A stretch of 64,000 nt of DNA, taken from Eledone cirrhosa. Lineage: Eukaryota. How positions within the stretch are numbered: the first letter of the stretch is position 1; each line of letters starts with the position of its first letter. The DNA is taken from the NCBI GenBank assembly GCA_964016885.1, contig OZ024756.1:7254001-7318000 (forward strand). Reading direction: 5' to 3'. The position numbers were made by a program, and so were the translations under genes. This document shows, piece after piece, positions 28,768 through 63,788 of the stretch. Under the pieces are notes generated by a model. It worked only from the letters and a program-made list of their open reading frames with translations, was not told where the DNA came from and searched no databases.

Positions 28768-28908
28768 AACGGAGGAAATGCGGTAAGGAACCAGGTGGAC
28801 CATAATGCACCAAAGTACTCAATACTTAGAGTAGTAAAGTGGGTAATAGGAACGAGTAGGACCCCGACGGCTGAGCTCAAACCGTTTCGACGGCTAATTC
28901 TGGACTAA
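28768..28908 (-). mobile_element. Inverted terminal (pseudo-LTR-like) segment abutting the PLE ORF, carrying the 3' half of an HHR
   Basis: Related copies at 52642-52790 and 53683-53818, all starting at a TA-rich tract. Minus strand reads gtc-GAAA-CGGTT...AGCCG-TC. Confidence 0.6.
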
Positions 28909-30651
28909 ATGAAACACATCAGGCTAAAACACTCCATCTCGGATATACTTCACAAACACATACACACACGCACAACACATAACCTCACCAAATCTCAACT
29001 CACCACTCTCTCCAACCTAAAATCGAAGAACCTCATCTATCTCCCCTCCGACAAGGGAAAAGAATTCTGCGTCATCAGCAGAGAGGCCTACAACACCCTG
29101 GCCCTCCAACACCTTGACGATGACAACCTCTACTCCAAGGTCACGGGAATCACTCCCGCGCAGATAGAAGAGCACATCAACGCCGCCTGGACCAACATCT
29201 GCGACCGGCGGAAGCTCCCGAAGAAGCTGAGATACAACCTCCTCACGAGGAACAGCAGACTACCCGCCTTCTACCACCTCGTGAAAACACACAAACAGGG
29301 ACCCGACCTGAAGATCAGGCCCATCGTATTGAGCGTGGAGGGACCACTCTACAAAATTTCATAGCTCCTAGCCAGAATACTCAAACCCATCTTAGACACC
29401 TTGCCGGGACACGTTAACAGCTCCGAGGAGGTGTTGAAGCGCCTGCATCAAATGGATCCCGACACCAGAAGGAATAACAGATATGCCTTCAGCCTTGATG
29501 TAGTCACTCTCTACACCTCGGTCCCGGCACTCCCGGCCGTCAATATACTGATGGAACGCGTCCAATCCACCGACCTACACTGCTTCGGGCTCACCACCAC
29601 TGACATCCACCAACTCCTATCCATCGTCGTCGACAACACCTACTTCGGATTCCTTGACCAAACATACCAACAAACCTCGGGATTGCCCATGGGATCAAAC
29701 CTGTCAGGTGTGCTAGCGATCTCTTACATGGACAACCTCGAGCCAAAGGCACTCAACGCCTGCCACCCCAACGCCGTAGCCTTTTTCTCAAGGTACGTTG
29801 ACGATATCCTCATCCTCACCTCTTCCCAAGACACGGCGAACAGAATTTATGAGACGTTCAACAACACGGACGAGAACATTGACTTCAGTGTTGAACACCC
29901 CAACGAAGACGGGTCACTTGCCTTCCTCGACTTCCGAATTAACATCACGGAACAGGGAAGGATCCACTGCAACTTCTACCGAAAGGCAGCCTGCAGGGAC
30001 CTGTTCGTTCACTACAAGTCCGCCCTCCCTAACAGTGACAAAAGAGGATACATCACGAACGAGATCGCGCGAATCAAAAACAGATGCAGCGATCCCGCGA
30101 GTGGTCTCACTCATACCAAGCGATTCCTCGAGGTGCTGGAGACGAACGGGTACCCTACCTCGCTCACAGACAGAATAGGAGACACCAGACACAAGAGACA
30201 GAGAGGCACCCAAGGCAAGTGCTTCCTTAAAATGCCACACCTGGGCGAGAATACCACCAACGCTATCCGCAAGGCTATACGGAGGGAGGGCCTCGACATC
30301 CACCTGGCCCACTCGAGCCCCTCCCTGCGAAGATGCCTCTCCAGGAAACCCGGGAAATCTACTGACGCATGCTCCCTCAGAGACTGCCCGATACGCCATG
30401 CGAACTGTTGCCTACGCACATACGTCGTGTATAAGATAGAATGTGACAGGTGCAAGCAATACTACATAGGTAGCACAATCCGACCTTTGCACATCCGGAT
30501 CAAGGAACACACTAAAACCAGGGCCTCGTCTTTCCGGAAACACATAGACAAATGCGGAAACAAAGACGGAAGGCCCATTGTCTCAATTCTAGCGACTGAA
30601 AGAAACGTCGGCACGTTACGTATCAAGGAAGCACTTTTTTATAATAACTAA
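28909..30651 (+). mobile_element. Penelope-like retroelement ORF: RT + Cys-rich linker + C-terminal GIY-YIG endonuclease, 5'-truncated, one in-frame stop at 29362
   Basis: PSDKG, FYHLVKTHK, IRPIV, SLDVVTLYTSV, GLPMGS, RYVDD, FLD, YRK; VVYKIECDRCKQYYIGST..RIKEH; the two ORFs are in frame. Confidence 0.93.
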
Positions 30652-30986
30652 GGATGTAGATAACATTAAGAACGATATTACAAATATAGTCCAAAGTCAC
30701 CAACTTAAATCTAAACAAATTTGGTTATATAGAGCAGGAATTATATATAACACAGTATAATACATTATAATAATAATATATCTATACCAACACTGAAATT
30801 CGAAATCAAAAATCAAAAGGTACAATATATACATGTATATATGTGCGCACACACACACACACATACACACACATATTACAATACACATATCTATTTTCTA
30901 TTACACAGAAATTAAGCCCTATTGGAAGTTTGAACATCAAAAATATCAAAAATATGCATGGTAATAGTGAAAATAATGCTAATACA

Positions 30987-31680
30987 TGCTTTTTCTATGA
31001 AAATCAGTAGTGGGCAGACTAATTTGCATAGAACGTGAGTCATTGTACGCGCCGGTTCAGCGGAAACGTTAAAAACAAATAACGAAACGAAATTAAATTT
31101 CGTTTCGCTTCTAACTCACTTTTGTATGACTGACGCTTAAACAATTAAGTTAAAGTGTACATCTACATATGTATACCGAAGTACTAGTATGCATATAAAT
31201 ACACACATGTATACATATGTACATGTACTGAGTTTTTCACTAGACACTTTACAGTGAGTGTCCAGCTAGTCTGTATGTAAACAAGAGAAAAAGCATATAA
31301 CGATATGTGCTTTTACAATTCTCCAGAGAAGCCGGAAAATAGGTATATATTGCTGATGAGATGTAATAACATCGAAACTAGTCCATATTCCCGTCTGGCT
31401 CTCTGGAGAATAGAGGAAGTGTGTTTCCTTGAAAACTCGTATGACTTTAAAACCCGGTTCGTCTGTTTGTTTGCATACAGACTAGCTGGACACTCACTGT
31501 AAAGTGTCTAGTGAAAAACTCAGTACATGTACATATGTATACATGTGTGTATTTATATGCATACTAGTACTTCGGTATACATATGTAGATGTACACTTTA
31601 ACTTAATTGTTTAAGCGTCAGTCATACAAAAGTGAGTTAGAAGCGAAACGAAATTTAATTTCGTTTCGTTATTTGTTTTT
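30987..31680 (+). mobile_element. HHR element family D, copy 2, with inverted left arm; HHR at 31346-31389
   Basis: ATATTG-CTGATGA-GATGTaataACATC-GAAA-CTAG-TC-CATAT; same 3' end as the 7241 copy; inferred monomer ~470 nt. Confidence 0.85.
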
Positions 31681-31851
31681 ATATATATATATATACACAC
31701 ATATATATATATAACAACAATACAGAGTCTTTCGGCCAGTGTCTAGCTCACTCAACAAATCTAGTGAAATGCAGTTATGCAGCTGCAGTCACCTATTCAG
31801 AGTGCAGACATTTAGTTTTATTGTAGAGCGTTGGCTGTGTATTTAATTTAC

Positions 31852-34994: not shown

Positions 34995-35077
<83 letters not shown>

Positions 35078-35113
35078 GAGAGTAAAACAAAGAAGCCTTT
35101 AATACATCAAAAG

Positions 35114-35168
35114 TTTTTATTAGCCGACAATGTTTCGTCCTATTAAGGACTCATCAGGGCAATTAAAA
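35114..35168 (-). ncRNA. Canonical-core type I hammerhead ribozyme (family H)
   Basis: Minus strand TTGCC-CTGATGA-GTCCTtaatAGGAC-GAAA-CAtTG-TC-GGCTAA. Confidence 0.88.
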
Positions 35169-35293
35169 CCACAAGAAGTAATATCGGCAAGAAGTAATAT
35201 TGGCTCTGTTTAACTACATTGAGCTATACCTTTTACTGTCATTTGTATAATACGAAGAGGGTGTTTAACTCCAACACGCTCCAGTATTTTAAT

Positions 35294-35333
<40 letters not shown>

Positions 35334-39485: not shown

Positions 39486-39633
39486 CATATATACATACAT
39501 ATATACATATATGTATGTATATATAGATACATATATACATATATATATATATAGATACATATATACATATATATATAGATACATATATACATATATATAT
39601 ATATATAGATACATATATACATATATATATATT

Positions 39634-41483
39634 TGAAGATAGACATAGAATATTCGAAAATATTCTGTATGTTTATAATAAACATTAATCGCTATAGAAT
39701 AGAATACGTCACGTATTACAATTAGATTCTCGATAAAAGCAAGGGAAGTAACCTACGCGTTTCATTCTTATTAGAAATCTTCAGGATTACATATCCAGTG
39801 CTTTTATCGAGAATGACACAGCTAGAGACTTATAGAATACTTAGCTGTGTACAGGAACTGGTTTGAAAGAGCGGTTGCCGATCCGGCAGAAATTAGAAAT
39901 TGGATTAAATGCTCTGAAATAGCGATATATATGTGAAGATAGACATAGAATATTCGAAAATATTCTGTATGTTTATAATAAACATTTTGAAGACCTAATC
40001 GCTATAGAATAGAATACGTCACGTATTACAATTAGATTCTCGATAAAAGCAAGGGAAGTAACCTACGCGTTTCATTCTTATTAGAAATCTTCAGGATTAC
40101 ATATCCAGTGCTTTTATCGAGAATGACACAGCTAGAGACTTATAGAATACTTAGCTGTGTACAGGAACTGGTTTGAAAGAGCGGTTGCCGATCCGGCAGA
40201 AATTAGAAATTGGATTAAATGCTCTGAAATAGCGATATATATGTGAAGATAGACATAGAATATTCGAAAATATTCTGTATGTTTATAATAAACATTTTGA
40301 AGACCTAATCGCTATAGAATAGAATACGTCACGTATTACAATTAGATTCTCGATAAAAGCAAGGGAAGTAACCTACGCGTTTCATTCTTATTAGAAATCT
40401 TCAGGATTACATATCCAGTGCTTTTATCGAGAATGACACAGCTAGAGACTTATAGAATACTTAGCTGTGTACAGGAACTGGTTTGAAAGAGCGGTTGCCG
40501 ATCCGGCAGAAATTAGAAATTGGATTAAATGCTCTGAAATAGCGATATATATGTGAAGATAGACATAGAATATTCGAAAATATTCTGTATGTTTATAATA
40601 AACATTTTGAAGACCTAATCGCTATAGAATAGAATACGTCACGTATTACAATTAGATTCTCGATAAAAGCAAGGGAAGTAACCTACGCGTTTCATTCTTA
40701 TTAGAAATCTTCAGGATTACATATCCAGTGCTTTTATCGAGAATGACACAGCTAGAGACTTATAGAATACTTAGCTGTGTACAGGAACTGGTTTGAAAGA
40801 GCGGTTGCCGATCCGGCAGAAATTAGAAATTGGATTAAATGCTCTGAAATAGCGATATATATGTGAAGATAGACATAGAATATTCGAAAATATTCTGTAT
40901 GTTTATAATAAACATTTTGAAGACCTAATCGCTATAGAATAGAATACGTCACGTATTACAATTAGATTCTCGATAAAAGCAAGGGAAGTAACCTACGCGT
41001 TTCATTCTTATTAGAAATCTTCAGGATTACATATCCACTGCTTTTATCGAGAATGACACAGCTAGAGACTTATAGAATACTTAGCTGTGTACAGGAACTG
41101 GTTTGAAAGAGCGGTTGCCGATCCGGCAGAAATTAGAAATTGGATTAAATGCTCTGAAATAGCGATATATATGTGAAGATAGACATAGAATATTCGAAAA
41201 TATTCTGTATGTTTATAATAAACATTTTGAAGACCTAATCGCTATAGAATAGAATACGTCACGTATTACAATTAGATTCTCGATAAAAGCAAGGGAAGTA
41301 ACCTACGCGTTTCATTCTTATTAGAAATCTTCAGGATTACATATCCAGTGCTTTTATCGAGAATGACACAGCTAGAGACTTATAGAATACTTAGCTGTGT
41401 ACAGGAACTGGTTTGAAAGAGCGGTTGCCGATCCGGCAGAAATTAGAAATTGGATTAAATGCTCTGAAATAGCGATATATATA
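39634..41483 (-). repeat. Six tandem 310-bp retrozyme-like units (family J); HHR on minus at 39748, 40058, 40368, 40678, 40988, 41298
   Basis: TGAAGATAGACATAG at 39634, 39934 (first unit has a 10-bp deletion), 40244, 40554, 40864, 41174. Confidence 0.93.
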
Positions 41484-43051
41484 TTCAGAGCATTTAATCC
41501 AATTTCTAATTTCTGCCGGATCGGCAACCGCTCTTTCAAACCAGTTCCTGTACACAGCTAAGTATTCTATAAGTCTCTAGCTGTGTCATTCTCGATAAAA
41601 GCACTGGATATGTAATCCTGAAGATTTCTAATAAGAATGAAACGCGTAGGTTACTTCCCTTGCTTTTATCGAGAATCTAATTGTAATACGTGACGTATTC
41701 TATTCTATAGCGATTAGGTCTTCAAAATGTTTATTATAAACATACAGAATATTTTCGAATATTCTATGTCTATCTTCACATATATATCGCTATTTCAGAG
41801 CATTTAATCCAATTTCTAATTTCTGCCGGATCGGCAACCGCTCTTTCAAACCAGTTCCTGTACACAGCTAAGTATTCTATAAGTCTCTAGCTGTGTCATT
41901 CTCGATAAAAGCACTGGATATGTAATCCTGAAGATTTCTAATAAGAATGAAACGCGTAGGTTACTTCCCTTGCTTTTATCGAGAATCTAATTGTAATACG
42001 TGACGTATTCTATTCTATAGCGATTAGGTCTTCAAAATGTTTATTATAAACATACAGAATATTTTCGAATATTCTATGTCTATCTTCACATATATATCGC
42101 TATTTCAGAGCATTTAATCCAATTTCTAATTTCTGCCGGATCGGCAACCGCTCTTTCAAACCAGTTCCTGTACACAGCTAAGTATTCTATAAGTCTCTAG
42201 CTGTGTCATTCTCGATAAAAGCACTGGATATGTAATCCTGAAGATTTCTAATTAGAATGAAACGCGTAGGTTACTTCCCTTGCTTTTATCGAGAATCTAA
42301 TTGTAATACGTGACGTATTCTATTCTATAGCGATTAGGTCTTCAAAATGTTTATTATAAACATACAGAATATTTTCGAATATTCTATGTCTATCTTCACA
42401 TATATATCGCTATTTCAGAGCATTTAATCCAATTTCTAATTTCTGCCGGATCGGCAACCGCTCTTTCAAACCAGTTCCTGTACACAGCTAAGTATTCTAT
42501 AAGTCTCTAGCTGTGTCATTCTCGATAAAAGCACTGGATATGTAATCCTGAAGATTTCTAATAAGAATGAAACGCGTAGGTTACTTCCCTTGCTTTTATC
42601 GAGAATCTAATTGTAATACGTGACGTATTCTATTCTATAGCGATTAGGTCTTCAAAATGTTTATTATAAACATACAGAATATTTTCGAATATTCTATGTC
42701 TATCTTCACATATATATCGCTATTTCAGAGCATTTAATCCAATTTCTAATTTCTGCCGGATCGGCAACCGCTCTTTCAAACCAGTTCCTGTACACAGCTA
42801 AGTATTCTATAAGTCTCTAGCTGTGTCATTCTCGATAAAAGCACTGGATATGTAATCCTGAAGATTTCTAATAAGAATGAAACGCGTAGGTTACTTCCCT
42901 TGCTTTTATCGAGAATCTAATTGTAATACGTGACGTATTCTATTCTATAGCGATTAGGTCTTCAAAATGTTTATTATAAACATACAGAATATTTTCGAAT
43001 ATTCTATGTCTATCTTCACATATATATCGCTATTTCAGAGCATTTAATCCA

Positions 43052-58624: not shown

Positions 58625-61600
58625 CTACAGGCTGAGGTAGAGAGAAGGCCCATTCACACGGGCCATTCTCGCAACTTTCACCCACCTTTCATAAAACTGG
58701 CTGGAGTGGAGCACCTCTCCCTCCATCCTGATCCTTCTTCCGAAATGGTATCGGAAGAAAAGGACCAGTTGTTGGCCGGAGAGAAAGGTGTCCGACCTCA
58801 GCCCTTTCACACGCGTCCACCATATAGCCTCTTTTACCATGGCTATTACACAGAGGAAGACCGCCTCTCCTTCATTTTTGAAGGGGGGAGGCGGCTTGAT
58901 CGTTACAATGGACTCGGTGGTCAACCTAGTTGGTCCCACCCGTGACAGCAGTTGTTCGACATAAATCCACAGATCGGTGCGCGACGGTTTCCTCGTCGCG
59001 CACGCATCTGGGACAGATCTTTTCGAGGGGTCCCTACCCGGGCGCCCGTGTCTGTAGAGCTTATCCCGAACGGGCAGCGCACTTCGGTAGCACTGCCAGG
59101 CCAAGGACTTCTGGAAATTGTCCATAGGTCCCGGGCCGAAAGTCCTACCGAATAGACTGGCCAGTTCGTCCTCCTCCATGCCTAGGGCTTCTCCGAGGGC
59201 GTCGTCGCACCCGCTAACCACCAGCCCTCTATAGAATGACGAGGTGGAGTCTCCGTCGATAGCCGGGTCCGCCTGCCAGAGAGCCGTGAGCGCCTGGGCA
59301 CACTCGGTGTGCCAGTCGCCTAGTTTTCTCGGTCTTTGCTTCACCCAGGACTGCAGCTCGGTGAGCGAGACGAGCCTCGGGAAGGCTCGCCTCACAAACG
59401 GGGCCCACACCGGTTGACCGGTGAGGAATACGTGGAGGTGCCTTAGCCTCAATGCGTGTTTACGCATTTTTAGCCACGGCATCCCCAGCCCTCCTTTCAA
59501 AGGGTGTTGACAGCAGATGGATCTCCTCACCAGAGGAGACCTCTTCTTCCAAAGGAAATAAAAGAGGGCGCGCTCCATTTTGGCGAGGATCTCACCCGGG
59601 CAAGGCACGACAGTCAAGCGGTAATAGATGACGGACGCTATGTAAGCGTTCGCCACCTCCGCCCGACCTTTTAGGGATAATTTGCACTCGGCCCACTTCT
59701 GGGTCAGTGCAAACACCCTATTCGTCACCTCACCCCAGTTTTTCTCCACCTGGGGGTGTGGTCCGAACCAGACCCCAAGCAACTTCACCGGGCCCTCCGT
59801 CCACCGTCCGACGATACCGTCGCACGACATCGCTTTGCCTCTCCACTCGCCGAGTTGCAAAGCGACTGACTTGTCCCGGTTCAGATTAGCCCCTGTCAAC
59901 CTTTCGTACTCCTCTAGTAAGGTGCCGATTGCCTCGATTTCCGAGGTGGTCGACACCATTACTGTTACGACATCGGCGTAGGCCGACACCGCTTTGCGCA
60001 ATCCCGGTTCCAAAGGGATGCCCTGCAACAACTCCAACTTCCGCAGTAATGGCTCGAGAGCCAATACATACAGAAGGGAGGAGAGAGGGCACCCCTGTCG
60101 GATGGAGCGGGTGATTTCGAATGGCTCCGAAAGGTAGCCGTTCACCTTGACTCTAGAGCAGATGTGGCTGCTGTGCATGGCAGTGATCCAGCCCCTGAAA
60201 ACGGGTCCGAACCCAGCCACCGCTTAGACTGATCTAAATTTATCAGGGCCCCACCAAAGCCGGGTTCGTTCCCAACCCTCTCTATGATGTATCGCATGAG
60301 GTGGAGGTTGTCGTGGATGGACCTGGACGGGATAGCGCATGCCTGCGCATCTCCCACCAGGCCCCTCACGACAAGCGCCAACCTCTTCGCTAACACCTTC
60401 GCCAAAATCTTTAACTCTGCATTTAGCAGAGTTATGGGCCTAAAATTACTAATGTTATCCCCCTTGTTCTCGTCCTTCCTCACTAGCGAGACTACGCCCT
60501 TGGTCACAGAACAGGGAATTCTCCCGTTCTGTTGCCAGTTGCAGTAGACCGCCTCGAGGAGATCGGGGAACAAGTCCGGCATATTAATATATAGTTCGTA
60601 GGGCAGACCATCGAGTCCTGGAGATTTGCGTTTGCCGCATAGGCTCAGCACGTCCCCTATTTCAGCTGCTGAGATCGGCCCGTCCCAGGACCTCGCCTCC
60701 CTGTCCGAAAGACGCGGCAGGCCATCGAGGTATGGACTGAAATCCACATCTCCAACCGGCCCCCCGGCCCTGCCGAACAATTGGGCAAAGTGCCTTTGAA
60801 AGGCCTCGCACATTTGCTTAGGTTCAAGGATCACCCGTCCATCCTGGTCTCGCAAAGACCGGATAGTGGATTTAATCCCACTTTTCGCTTCTGTCACGCG
60901 GGCTCAGCTAACAGCTTTGGTCCCCTCGTTTCCCAGAGCACGTATTTTGCTTCGGACAACGCAGCCTTCGTGTTTCGCGTCGAAGAACTGGTTCAAGACC
61001 GTTCTCGACGCTTGCACTCTGGCCACGTTGCCGCTTCTCATTGCCTCTTCAACATTAACTACCAACTCCCTTTCCTTCCTATTTCTATCTGAGGCTAACT
61101 CCTTACTAACTCCTATTGAAACTACTCTAATCTCTCTTTTTAGAGAGCCCCACCACCTGTTGTTGACGATGGCGCCCGTCAACCGCTCCTTAACTAAGGT
61201 TCTAATCCGGTCCCTGTAAGCTCTACTTGCCGGTAAGGACAAGTTGAGCTTCCAGTAACCGGGCCCCTGCCTATGCGTTCTATCAAGGTGGACTACGCAG
61301 GTCACTAACTTGTGGTCTGAATAGCCTACCATGAGCATTTCTGGACAACTTAAAAAGTCCCTATCCTTAATTCTAACTAAGAACCTATCTAGGTACGATC
61401 TAGATTGACCACTGTTATTTGACCAGGTCCAGGTTGGTACAGTTGGAAAATCTAGTCGGTATCTATCGGCCAGGTCAAATCGGCCGATTAACCCCTTAAG
61501 GCTGTTGCACCCCCCTCTATCGGGACATGCCCCTACATAGTCCCAACGTGCATCTAGGATACCATTCCAGTCCCCCACTAAAAGCAAGGAGCGGGACGTC

Positions 61601-61992
61601 CCTAGAAAAGTGTTCAGACGATGGAAGAAGTCCGACCGCATTGCCCCAAACGGGGCGTATACGGCGACTAGCCTAAAAGCTTCGCCTTCACCATTTCCAA
61701 GGTCCAGAACCACGAGTCGACCCTCCGGGTCCAAGTGTACCGTCTGTGTAGCGAGACCCAGATGTTTTTGCAGCAGAACGACAACCCCACCCCCACCTCC
61801 GGGCTGACAGAGAGATGCGTGCATCTCAAAGTCATCAAAGGTGGGGGCTAGCTGTCGCATGCTGCTGATCCGGGCCTCGCAAATAACCATCACATTTATA
61901 CATTGTGACCTGAGGTCACTTAGAAGTTTAGCTTGCTTCCAAGGTGAGCCCAGGCCACGCGCATTTAGACAACCTACTCTTAAGACAGCCAT
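58625..61992 (-). pseudogene. Tx1/L1 ORF2 (AP endonuclease, RT), disrupted
   Basis: LNARGL, VYAP, GDWN, SYLDRF, SDH, YWKLN; SPGLDGLP, FRPITLLN, LDQSK, RQGCPLS, YADV. In-frame stop at 60904, deletion/frameshift near 60220, YADD changed to YADV. Confidence 0.92.
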
Positions 61993-62015
61993 GTTGGTGG
62001 CAAAGAAAGAGGCAC

Positions 62016-63788
62016 TTACCTCTCTGCGTCCCGGGGTTCGGGCCGCTCAGTTTCCATGGGGCTGGTGGAGGGGTTGATGGGTGGGGTGGTGGTTTGTGGT
62101 GGTGTGGGGGTATTAGTGTGTGGAGGGGTTGGGATCTTTGGAGTTGTGTGGGTGTTTGAGGAGGGGAGGGGAAAACCTTTCAGGAGGACGCGGTTGAGTG
62201 GCCTGGTGCAGGGTGGGCCCACGTCCTCAGGGTAAATGTCTTTCAAAGTTTTGAAAATCTCAAGTGGGATTTTCACCATTTTCAGGTTAGGGAGCCCCAT
62301 TGCCGTTACGAAATTCGGCCCTTCGGTTTGTATCGAAGGGTTGTTTTCTATTTTTTCAGTTAGGTTTTTATTCTTTTTGTTTATGTATGTGTAGAGTTTT
62401 TGTGGTGTTGTGTTTGTTTTTGCTTGTTGTTGTTGAGTGAGTTTGCGTTGTATTGTCTGTGTTGTGTTGTCAGGTGGGGTTATTTTTGTTTGTGTGGTGT
62501 GTGTACGTTTTTTTATTTTCACTTCTTGGAAGGGAGCCCCCTCGTCTTCCGACGATATGAGCTCCTCTTCCGTATTGGAGGGGAGGGGTATATCTCCGGG
62601 TTGTGTATGAACTGCGTGTGTTTTTGTATTTGTGTTCTGTGGGGTGGGGCTGGGTGGGACCGTGTTTTGGGTTGTTTTCTTGAGCTGTTGTTGATGTTGT
62701 TGTTGTTGTGGTGGTGGTGGCGGTGGTGTTGTTGGTGGTTTTTGTTGTCGTTCTGGTGGTGATGGTAGTGTATTTTGTTGTTTTTGTGAGGGTGGTGCTG
62801 GTTGTTTTTGTTGTTGTTGTGGTGTTTGTAGCAGTGGTTTTTTTGTTGTTAGTAGAGGGCAGGCTGTCCTCAGGTGACCTCTGCCATCGCAGTAGTAACA
62901 TGAGGGTCTCCTGCCTTCCACTGTGATATTTATGAAGGTTCGCCCATCCAGTACCACTCGGTCGGGTATTCCGGAGATTCTCTCAGGTGTCATCTGTAAG
63001 AGAACCTCCAGACTTTTCCCCCCGAACAGTCCACTGGTGGACTCCCCTGCTGAAATAAGTATATCATTTTCTAGGTCGGTAAATCCTGTTAGGACGGACC
63101 AGATGTTAATTTCTGGCGTTGGGCTCCATATTCTTATTCTTTGTGTTCTTCTTCCTTTATATGTGGGGAAGAAGGTGTATTGTGGTGACACTATAGGTGC
63201 CACCGAATATTTTTGCGCCAGCATTTCGTCCTTCATTCGGACCATAATGCTGGCATACAGCTTTCCTCTTTGAATAAAGAGTATGTCGTTTTTAATTTCT
63301 TTCAGAACCAGCTCAATTTGACTTTCGGTCAATTGCTATGGCTTTCTTGTTTCGTTGGTTATGGTTCTGTAGGTTACGGTATTCTTATAAACCTGTTGAC
63401 GCACTTCTTCTGGGGAGTTGATCGTAAAAGAACCATCCTCCCCAAAAGATACGTATTTTCTAGCCTCTAGCAAATTTTCATTGGCGTTCGTGATGTCTAT
63501 GGGTTTGTATTCCGTGGCTTTCCTGAGTGTTTGGGCAAAAGAAATGTTGTCTTTGTTTGTTGTTGTAATGTTGTTGGTTTCCTTATTTGTGGTGTTATTT
63601 TTTTCTTCAAAATTAAGTTTTTCATTTGAATTAATATTCTTTTTTTTTTCATTGGAGAGGAGGGGCTGTTCAACAGTTTGAACTGTTGTTTCCTCTTTCC
63701 CGCTTGTTTTTTTGGTAGGCGTGGCGTTCGCTTCCAATATGGCGATATCGTTTTCGACGATATCGTTATCAACGATATCGATAAACAT
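62016..63788 (-). pseudogene. Tx1/L1 ORF1 with CCHC zinc knuckle and Q/P/T-rich region; in-frame stop at 63336
   Basis: CYYCDGRGHLRTAC = CX2CX4HX4C; the two track ORFs are in frame across TAG. Confidence 0.85.

Follow-up and report, generated by a model that had tools for sequence, protein, structure and literature searches.

An octamer shared by two sister hammerhead repeat families as part of an inherited predicted hairpin and a fair candidate for an internal promoter element

The window, that is, the whole stretch of 64,000 nucleotides that was analysed, consists of AT-rich animal DNA in which (TA)n tracts predominate, and it contains fragments of retroelements. Among these, a Penelope-like frame on the plus strand (28909-30651, with one in-frame stop at 29362-29364) contains a reverse transcriptase domain (RVT_1, E 1.2e-9) and a GIY-YIG domain (E 8e-4, below the curated cut-off); the homologue search with its protein gave 15 matches, unnamed or labelled hypothetical, and its cysteine-rich linker resembles, by eye, that of the Neptune clade. 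A 130-nt terminus on the minus strand, which has no hammerhead core and appears to contain two small hairpins, is present in three copies facing microsatellites (28770-28909, 52643-52790 and 53680-53810), and the copy that abuts the Penelope frame may be the inverted 3′ end of that element. The window also holds a broken LINE-type element (58625-63335, minus strand), with AP endonuclease and reverse transcriptase in several frames, and copies, some tandem or inverted, of a SINE-like repeat (6-389, 19037-19412, 23766-23984 and 53914-54032), which resembles a cephalopod SINE; by the copy at 6-389 the genome may be that of a cephalopod.

In a descriptor search of the window, five repeat families, here called A to E, proved to have type I hammerhead motifs. 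The search recovered the cores of A, of B (4042 and 50883) and of D (7503); a further D core, at 31353, fell below its score cut because helix I is imperfect in that copy, and with Rfam this core reached 22 bits (Hammerhead_HH9, E 0.0083), below the gathering score of 52. At the gathering score Rfam has no match in the window, hence neither a hammerhead nor an snRNA gene, and no tRNA genes were found in it; the Rfam scan of two sub-regions gave just AT-hairpin microRNA noise and one sub-threshold hammerhead match, with none for B. A nucleotide profile detected no further copies of B or D, AT-repeat noise aside, and the B/D covariance model matched B and D copies only, without a significant match in family A. 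The repeat at 22545 and 38366 is, judged by eye, an unrelated family without hammerhead; the 2 bacterial matches of the B/D hammerhead pattern in a GTDB scan, none of which matches the B/D model, were judged to be chance; and a bacterial promoter scan was set aside as irrelevant to this host.

The first D insertion (30986-31681, about 1.5 units of 469 nt) begins about 335 nt to the right of the end of the Penelope frame and is formed by two arms. The left, inverted arm (30986-31284, minus strand) extends from monomer position 84 to about 382, crossing the conserved 3′ hairpin and T-rich linker (31071-31108) and the T-run into the octamer module; the right arm (31286-31681, plus strand) extends from monomer position 372 to 298, carries the hammerhead core at 31353-31383, with predicted cleavage after 31383, and a second copy of the hairpin and linker at 31643-31680, and ends at a T5 run in (TA)n. 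A second D insertion (7241-7833), also with head-to-head arms, is without the octamer region. Family B, with a unit of 425 nt, has a minus-strand insertion of about 1.07 units at 3735-4193, in which a hairpin, a T6 run, the octamer (4115-4122), a TATATA (4075-4080), the hammerhead (4012-4042), a second hairpin with T6 and (TA)n are found, and a head-to-head insertion at 50650-51209, whose minus arm has the octamer at 50956-50963, TATATA at 50916-50921 and the hammerhead at 50853-50883, and whose plus arm has the octamer at 51110-51117, TATATA at 51152-51157 and a truncated hammerhead. The B arms measure about 1.05-1.1 units, and the window holds neither a tandem array of B or D nor a dimer with two whole ribozymes.

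The sole array is that of family A (39625-43055), which comprises about 11 units of 310 nt and changes orientation at about 41483; 9 of its units were compared and show at most 1 difference, so that it is the youngest. It forms one head-to-head insertion between (TA)n tracts, and in unit coordinates the end of its right arm is about 35-40 nt beyond that of its left arm, which fits rolling-circle reverse transcription with a Penelope-type tail. Family C (24529-25036 and 49264-49601) is again arranged in inversion. Head-to-head arms are thus found in A, at both loci of C, in both D insertions and in one of the two of B; insertion ends abut (TA)n, except for the D end at 30986, and a self-comparison of the window revealed no LTR-like anatomy. 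The GC content of the units of A, B and D is 0.36-0.38. Elsewhere, a single hammerhead with an AATAAA after it, flanked by (TA)n tracts (35075-35297, minus strand), resembles the remnant of a Penelope pseudo-LTR, and two young inverted repeats with arms 99% identical (49761-50287 and 51723-52488), in which no hammerhead core was found, lie beside (TA)n.

The exact octamer ATGCAAAT is present at 4115-4122, 31022-31029 and 50956-50963 on the minus strand and at 51110-51117 on the plus strand, in all four cases on the hammerhead-sense strand, and it is kept in the three copies of B and the one copy of D that cover the region. A preliminary description of this DNA had reported these sites, and had seen in the octamer and a TATA-like word 34 or 35 nt further on, situated about 40 nt after a T-run and shortly before the hammerhead, a candidate snRNA-type promoter shared by two otherwise dissimilar families. 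The positions and the placement were confirmed, since the octamer lies 44 nt (B) or 41 nt (D) after the T-run and 72 nt (B) or 92 nt (D) before the ribozyme core. The spacing is exact in B, where TATATA follows after 34 nt in all three copies, whereas the 35 nt of D appear solely after reconstruction, in one copy. As a count, four octamers in the window are at the level of chance (shuffle mean 2.91, with 35 of 100 shuffles reaching 4); three of the four sites belong to 96-98% identical copies of family B, so that there are just two independent observations.

The D locus as it stands has no TATA-like word after the octamer and no octamer before the TATAA at 31296-31300 (plus strand). The reconstruction rests on the 11 nt that end the inverted left arm (30986-30996, minus strand) and are duplicated at 31286-31296 (plus strand), the last of them being the first T of TATA; because this overlap joins the inverted left arm to the right arm, we consider the reconstruction across the inversion, from one copy, to be sound. 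Two other octamer-like words were rejected: one with one mismatch in family E, 12 nt before a TATA-like word, as chance, and one in antisense at 31469, considered as a long-range partner, since the word is not the same in the other D copies and the octamer has a local partner in the predicted fold.

The description of the two families as dissimilar was not upheld. B and D are colinear homologues that align end to end (global alignment z 14.8, and z 12.0 without the octamer and the ribozyme core, with 0 of 300 shuffles in each case), at an identity of 61% in the MAFFT alignment (253 of 416 pairs) or 69% in a pairwise one, and given this homology throughout, the shared octamer was inherited by descent, not acquired by convergence. 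The longest run identical between B and D is a 10-mer that holds the octamer (31021-31030 in D, minus strand), followed by 9-mers, the ribozyme core included; an identical run of at least 10 is expected somewhere in the pair in any case (mean 0.93, P 0.63). In family A neither strand has an octamer, even with one mismatch allowed, and because its kinship with B and D cannot be demonstrated (global z 1.9-3.3, local about 0-1), this is a weak negative. Family C has no octamer within one mismatch either, nor any detectable homology to A, B or D.

As predicted circles, the units fold more stably than their shuffles (MFE z −5.1 for A, −4.6 for B and −12.2 for D; 0 of 40 shuffles each), and of the 148 pairs predicted for B, 53 are also present in D, where 6 changes are double-sided and 5 one-sided; in a simple null of uniform substitutions, with B randomly mutated to 69% identity, an average of 5.2 pairs and a maximum of 24 survive (40 trials). 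The octamer is in both families the 5′ arm of a predicted local hairpin (30993-31033 in D and 4088-4123 in B, both on the minus strand), and the spacer between it and TATA supplies the loop, the 3′ arm and a few flanking bases. That of D reaches −12.1 kcal/mol (z −4.85, 0 of 200 shuffles), and that of B, moderately stable, −11.6 kcal/mol (z −1.9 and −2.3, 9 and 4 of 200 shuffles); both have family-specific extra pairs outside the octamer. The 40 nt that precede the octamer are predicted to contribute a small hairpin together with one strand, the closing one, of a helix around the 3′ hairpin, which would account for the fixed distance between T-run and octamer. The TATA of D sits in a further predicted hairpin (31289-31314, z −4.8).

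In the 12-bp octamer helix, 22 of 24 cells are paired: there are 7 invariant pairs, 3 one-sided changes that keep the pair and 2 broken cells, one per family, with no double-sided change, and with two sequences the covariation does not reach significance (125 of 500 shuffles). Identity between B and D is 11/12 in the 5′ arm, 8/12 in the 3′ arm and 6/11 in the loop, and in the helix of the 10-mer all 3 differences fall in the 3′ arm, 2 of them breaking pairs. To judge from this alignment, the octamer arm behaves as if it were constrained by its sequence. Furthermore, the 3′ arm is in each family a one-mismatch inverted octamer, and the octamer and this arm may alternatively be read as two DNA sites that form a pair.

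The ends of the insertions inform on the T-run, which had been proposed as a possible Pol III stop. As an efficient stop it does not stand, since 3 of the 7 B and D arms cross it and the production of full monomers would be incompatible with it too; a leaky stop is possible, 2 of the 7 arms (both of D, out of four D arms) ending at a T5 run. Five of the 7 arms hold sequence located between the T-run and the predicted start, which a Pol III transcript running from that start to the T-run would lack, so that these five do not fit such a transcript. The arms would rather be reverse transcripts of read-through multimers or circles. Three of them end, beside (TA)n, at a homologous position just after the conserved hairpin (3735, 7833 and 31681), at the end of T5 in D and about 6 nt past T6 in B (3735), and this hairpin is identical at 17 of 20 positions between B and D. 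The hairpin and its T-rich linker would have served as a preferred priming or 3′ end site, not as an efficient terminator. Family A, too, ends at a TTT (43055), here within a U-rich linker that precedes a small CCGG hairpin; the TTT and hairpin at these ends are a candidate recognition signal of the reverse transcriptase.

With respect to transcription, the snRNA-type promoter fared unevenly: the octamer is conserved and the geometry fits, but the module is shared by descent and the slot of the PSE is no better than background. An 18-bp PSE at −65 to −48, with the octamer at −250 to −170, is described in the passages drawn from PMC9652321, and those from PMC7949045 give a spacer of 15-19 bp, PSE with TATA directing Pol III and PSE alone Pol II, and an H1 promoter that fits within 100 bp. 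The 34 or 35 nt thus match a PSE plus spacer (33-37 nt), on condition that the PSE abuts the octamer. In that slot, B and D are identical at 9/19 positions ungapped or 11/20 gapped, against a background of 61-69%; the first 10 positions after the shared T are identical at 6/10 (p about 0.01 against shuffles), which homology alone explains as well. A TATA-like word at that distance has a chance of 3-9%, and that of D is reconstructed. In such a promoter the octamer would occupy about −72 to −65, directly next to the PSE slot, and would thus be neither distal nor separated from the PSE as in H1; in the Schistosoma U6 promoter an octamer is predicted at −253 (PMC5460494, in the part cited). No molluscan PSE was present among the matches listed in the literature, nor, in the open-licence literature, any description among the matches listed of the B and D families or of an octamer in retrozymes; the passages drawn from PMC6309819 add nothing further on promoters.

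The octamer itself keeps some weight. An exact sense-strand octamer per monomer occurs in 46-81 of 5000 shuffles (0.9-1.6%), and its retention has a chance of 0.015-0.05, or 0.14 if the helix is kept, so that gain and retention jointly come to about 0.001-0.002 by our own arithmetic, for a motif noticed after the fact. Because of this joint chance a role in the DNA keeps real weight in spite of its low prior and of just two independent observations, and an internal promoter in B and D has, in our estimation, somewhat less than an even chance.

The precedent invoked for such a promoter was newt satellite 2. An snRNA promoter has indeed been reported for it, as one that drives Pol II (cited in the part of PMC2220036 used here), and to add it to a PSE with TATA, which belongs to Pol III, mixes the two classes. 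Satellite 2 is likewise a hammerhead repeat with a palindromic helix III that needs dimers, and has a reported internal snRNA-type promoter (Coats, Zhang and Epstein 1994, as cited in PMC2220036 and PMC7229834); here, in contrast, a PSE cannot be demonstrated, the module includes a TATA-like word, and the repeats probably belong to an invertebrate. Type 3 Pol III promoters (passages of PMC9652321 and PMC7949045) likewise have an octamer, a TATA-like word and a gap the size of PSE and spacer, but in B and D the octamer is adjacent to the PSE slot instead of being part of a distal element or neighbouring a Staf site, the slot is not conserved, and the module is inside a mobile RNA. With the immunoglobulin VH and histone H2B Pol II promoters, which are those of vertebrate protein genes, the resemblance is one of spacing alone: in them the octamer lies a few tens of bases upstream of TATA with no PSE between. 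The promoter of newt satellite 2 reportedly contains octamer and PSE without TATA.

B and D are likely non-LTR retrozymes with a Penelope-type insertion signature. Like the metazoan non-LTR retrozymes of Cervera and de la Pena 2020 (PMC7229834, in the sections cited), they are short and non-coding, with a type I hammerhead, a GC content below 50% and self-paired predicted circles, and tandem copies (here in family A) and a suspected Penelope-like mobilisation are also shared; against a range of 150-450 bp in the same source, B, with 425 nt, lies at the upper end and D, with 469 nt, slightly beyond it. Unlike the described retrozymes, B and D appear here as 1-1.5-mers in head-to-head inversions, and they share a conserved 3′-end hairpin and an octamer, whereas the review PMC7761336, in the passage cited, holds that retrozymes seem promoterless and that metazoan ones are without a conserved motif that would point to a partner. 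Later than that review, a promoter was mapped in a plant retrozyme LTR (PMC12029980, part cited). Helix III is palindromic, also in the copy at 7503, which implies dimeric cleavage (PMC4209133, in its relevant part).

The likenesses with Penelope-like elements and their non-autonomous derivatives (PMC8557442 and PMC4209133, passages cited) are minimal or short-helix-III hammerheads, inverted 5′-truncated copies, a tail at one end, a bias towards microsatellites and a partial upstream copy that supplies the start site; PMC8557442, in the same passages, reports such truncated inversions, one-end tails and microsatellite targets and places a start site in the Penelope pseudo-LTR, with an internal promoter nearby. 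B and D differ in that they encode no protein and are circularly permuted units, not pseudo-LTRs around a frame. A Penelope-like element is likely the kind that mobilises these repeats, and the adjacency of the frame at 28909-30651 to D may be incidental.

The history that we propose would begin with tandem copies transcribed by read-through, whose RNAs would cleave themselves as dimers by means of the palindromic helix III and then be ligated to circles; a Penelope-type enzyme would have copied B and D from this circular or multimeric RNA, with reverse transcription primed at nicked (TA)n, and the octamer module would have persisted as the 5′ arm of a 12-bp helix in a predicted, shared branched fold. 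The octamer would then be an inherited segment of RNA helix in sister families, without promoter function, a reading that we consider probable, if only slightly so. The roles of RNA helix and promoter are, however, mutually compatible.

A rather unlikely alternative, which should nevertheless be weighed, is that a POU factor also binds the octamer in the DNA, as part of an internal read-through Pol II promoter similar to that of newt satellite 2 or the Penelope pseudo-LTR, in which case every unit would drive the one that follows and the T-run would not act as a stop. The exact octamer with its flanking Ts as the longest run identical between B and D, the confinement of the helix differences to the opposite arm and the five arms of seven that such transcripts would fit speak for it, as do the precedents in newt satellite 2 (PMC2220036), the Penelope pseudo-LTR (PMC8557442) and the plant retrozyme LTR (PMC12029980), each in the passages cited; but the observations are two, with D from one copy, nothing except the octamer exceeds the background, the only array in the window (A) is without the motif, there being none of B or D, and the relevant passage of PMC7761336 has retrozymes as seemingly promoterless.

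Distinctly unlikely is a compact type-3 promoter of the U6, 7SK or H1 kind, from which Pol III would start about 30 nt after TATA, with a leaky stop at the T-run and read-through giving full monomers. The match of 34/35 to the 33-37 nt of PSE plus spacer (PMC9652321 and PMC7949045, in part), the compactness of H1 and the two D arms of four that end at a T5 run agree with it, and one D arm (7475/7477-7833) starts 29-31 nt after the position of TATA and ends at T5, its partner arm lying within the same span, that is, from start to T5. The reading of an inherited helix explains this arm as chance alone, one such start among the seven within 3 nt, at about 10% by our estimate. Moreover, the PSE slot is not above background and forms the loop and an arm of the predicted hairpin, the octamer is normally at −250 to −170 (PMC9652321) or at −253 in Schistosoma U6 (PMC5460494), as far as these sources were drawn upon, the end of the B insertion at 3735 is about 6 nt beyond T6, three arms cross the T-run, and family A has no T-run longer than 4. 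An independent convergence or pure chance in two unrelated families is hardly credible, for although the number of octamers in the window is that of chance and TATA-like words are common here, the end-to-end alignment of B and D and the homologous position of the octamer in a shared predicted helix contradict it.

In summary, the octamer feature is real but was over-read: it is an inherited hairpin and a fair candidate for an internal promoter element. A bolder proposal, which we regard as unlikely, would be that of a clan of invertebrate retrozymes with its own compact snRNA-type promoter, in which the same 40 bases would be an octamer-PSE-TATA promoter in the DNA and a helix in the circular RNA, each unit driving the following one and yielding both transcripts from start to T-run and read-through circles that the Penelope machinery would insert into (TA)n. 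PMC7761336 and PMC7229834, in the parts cited, leave open both the origin of the abundant transcription of animal retrozymes and the identity of the autonomous element that moves them, and in this respect the diverged sister pair offers one small and mutable candidate promoter element, together with a clean way to tell a DNA motif from an RNA helix. Even without a promoter, the shared 3′-end hairpin and the Penelope-type inversions are anatomical evidence for Penelope-like mobilisation. If the promoter were true, the strategy of newt satellite 2 would extend to an invertebrate lineage, with a dual use of one segment as DNA and as RNA.
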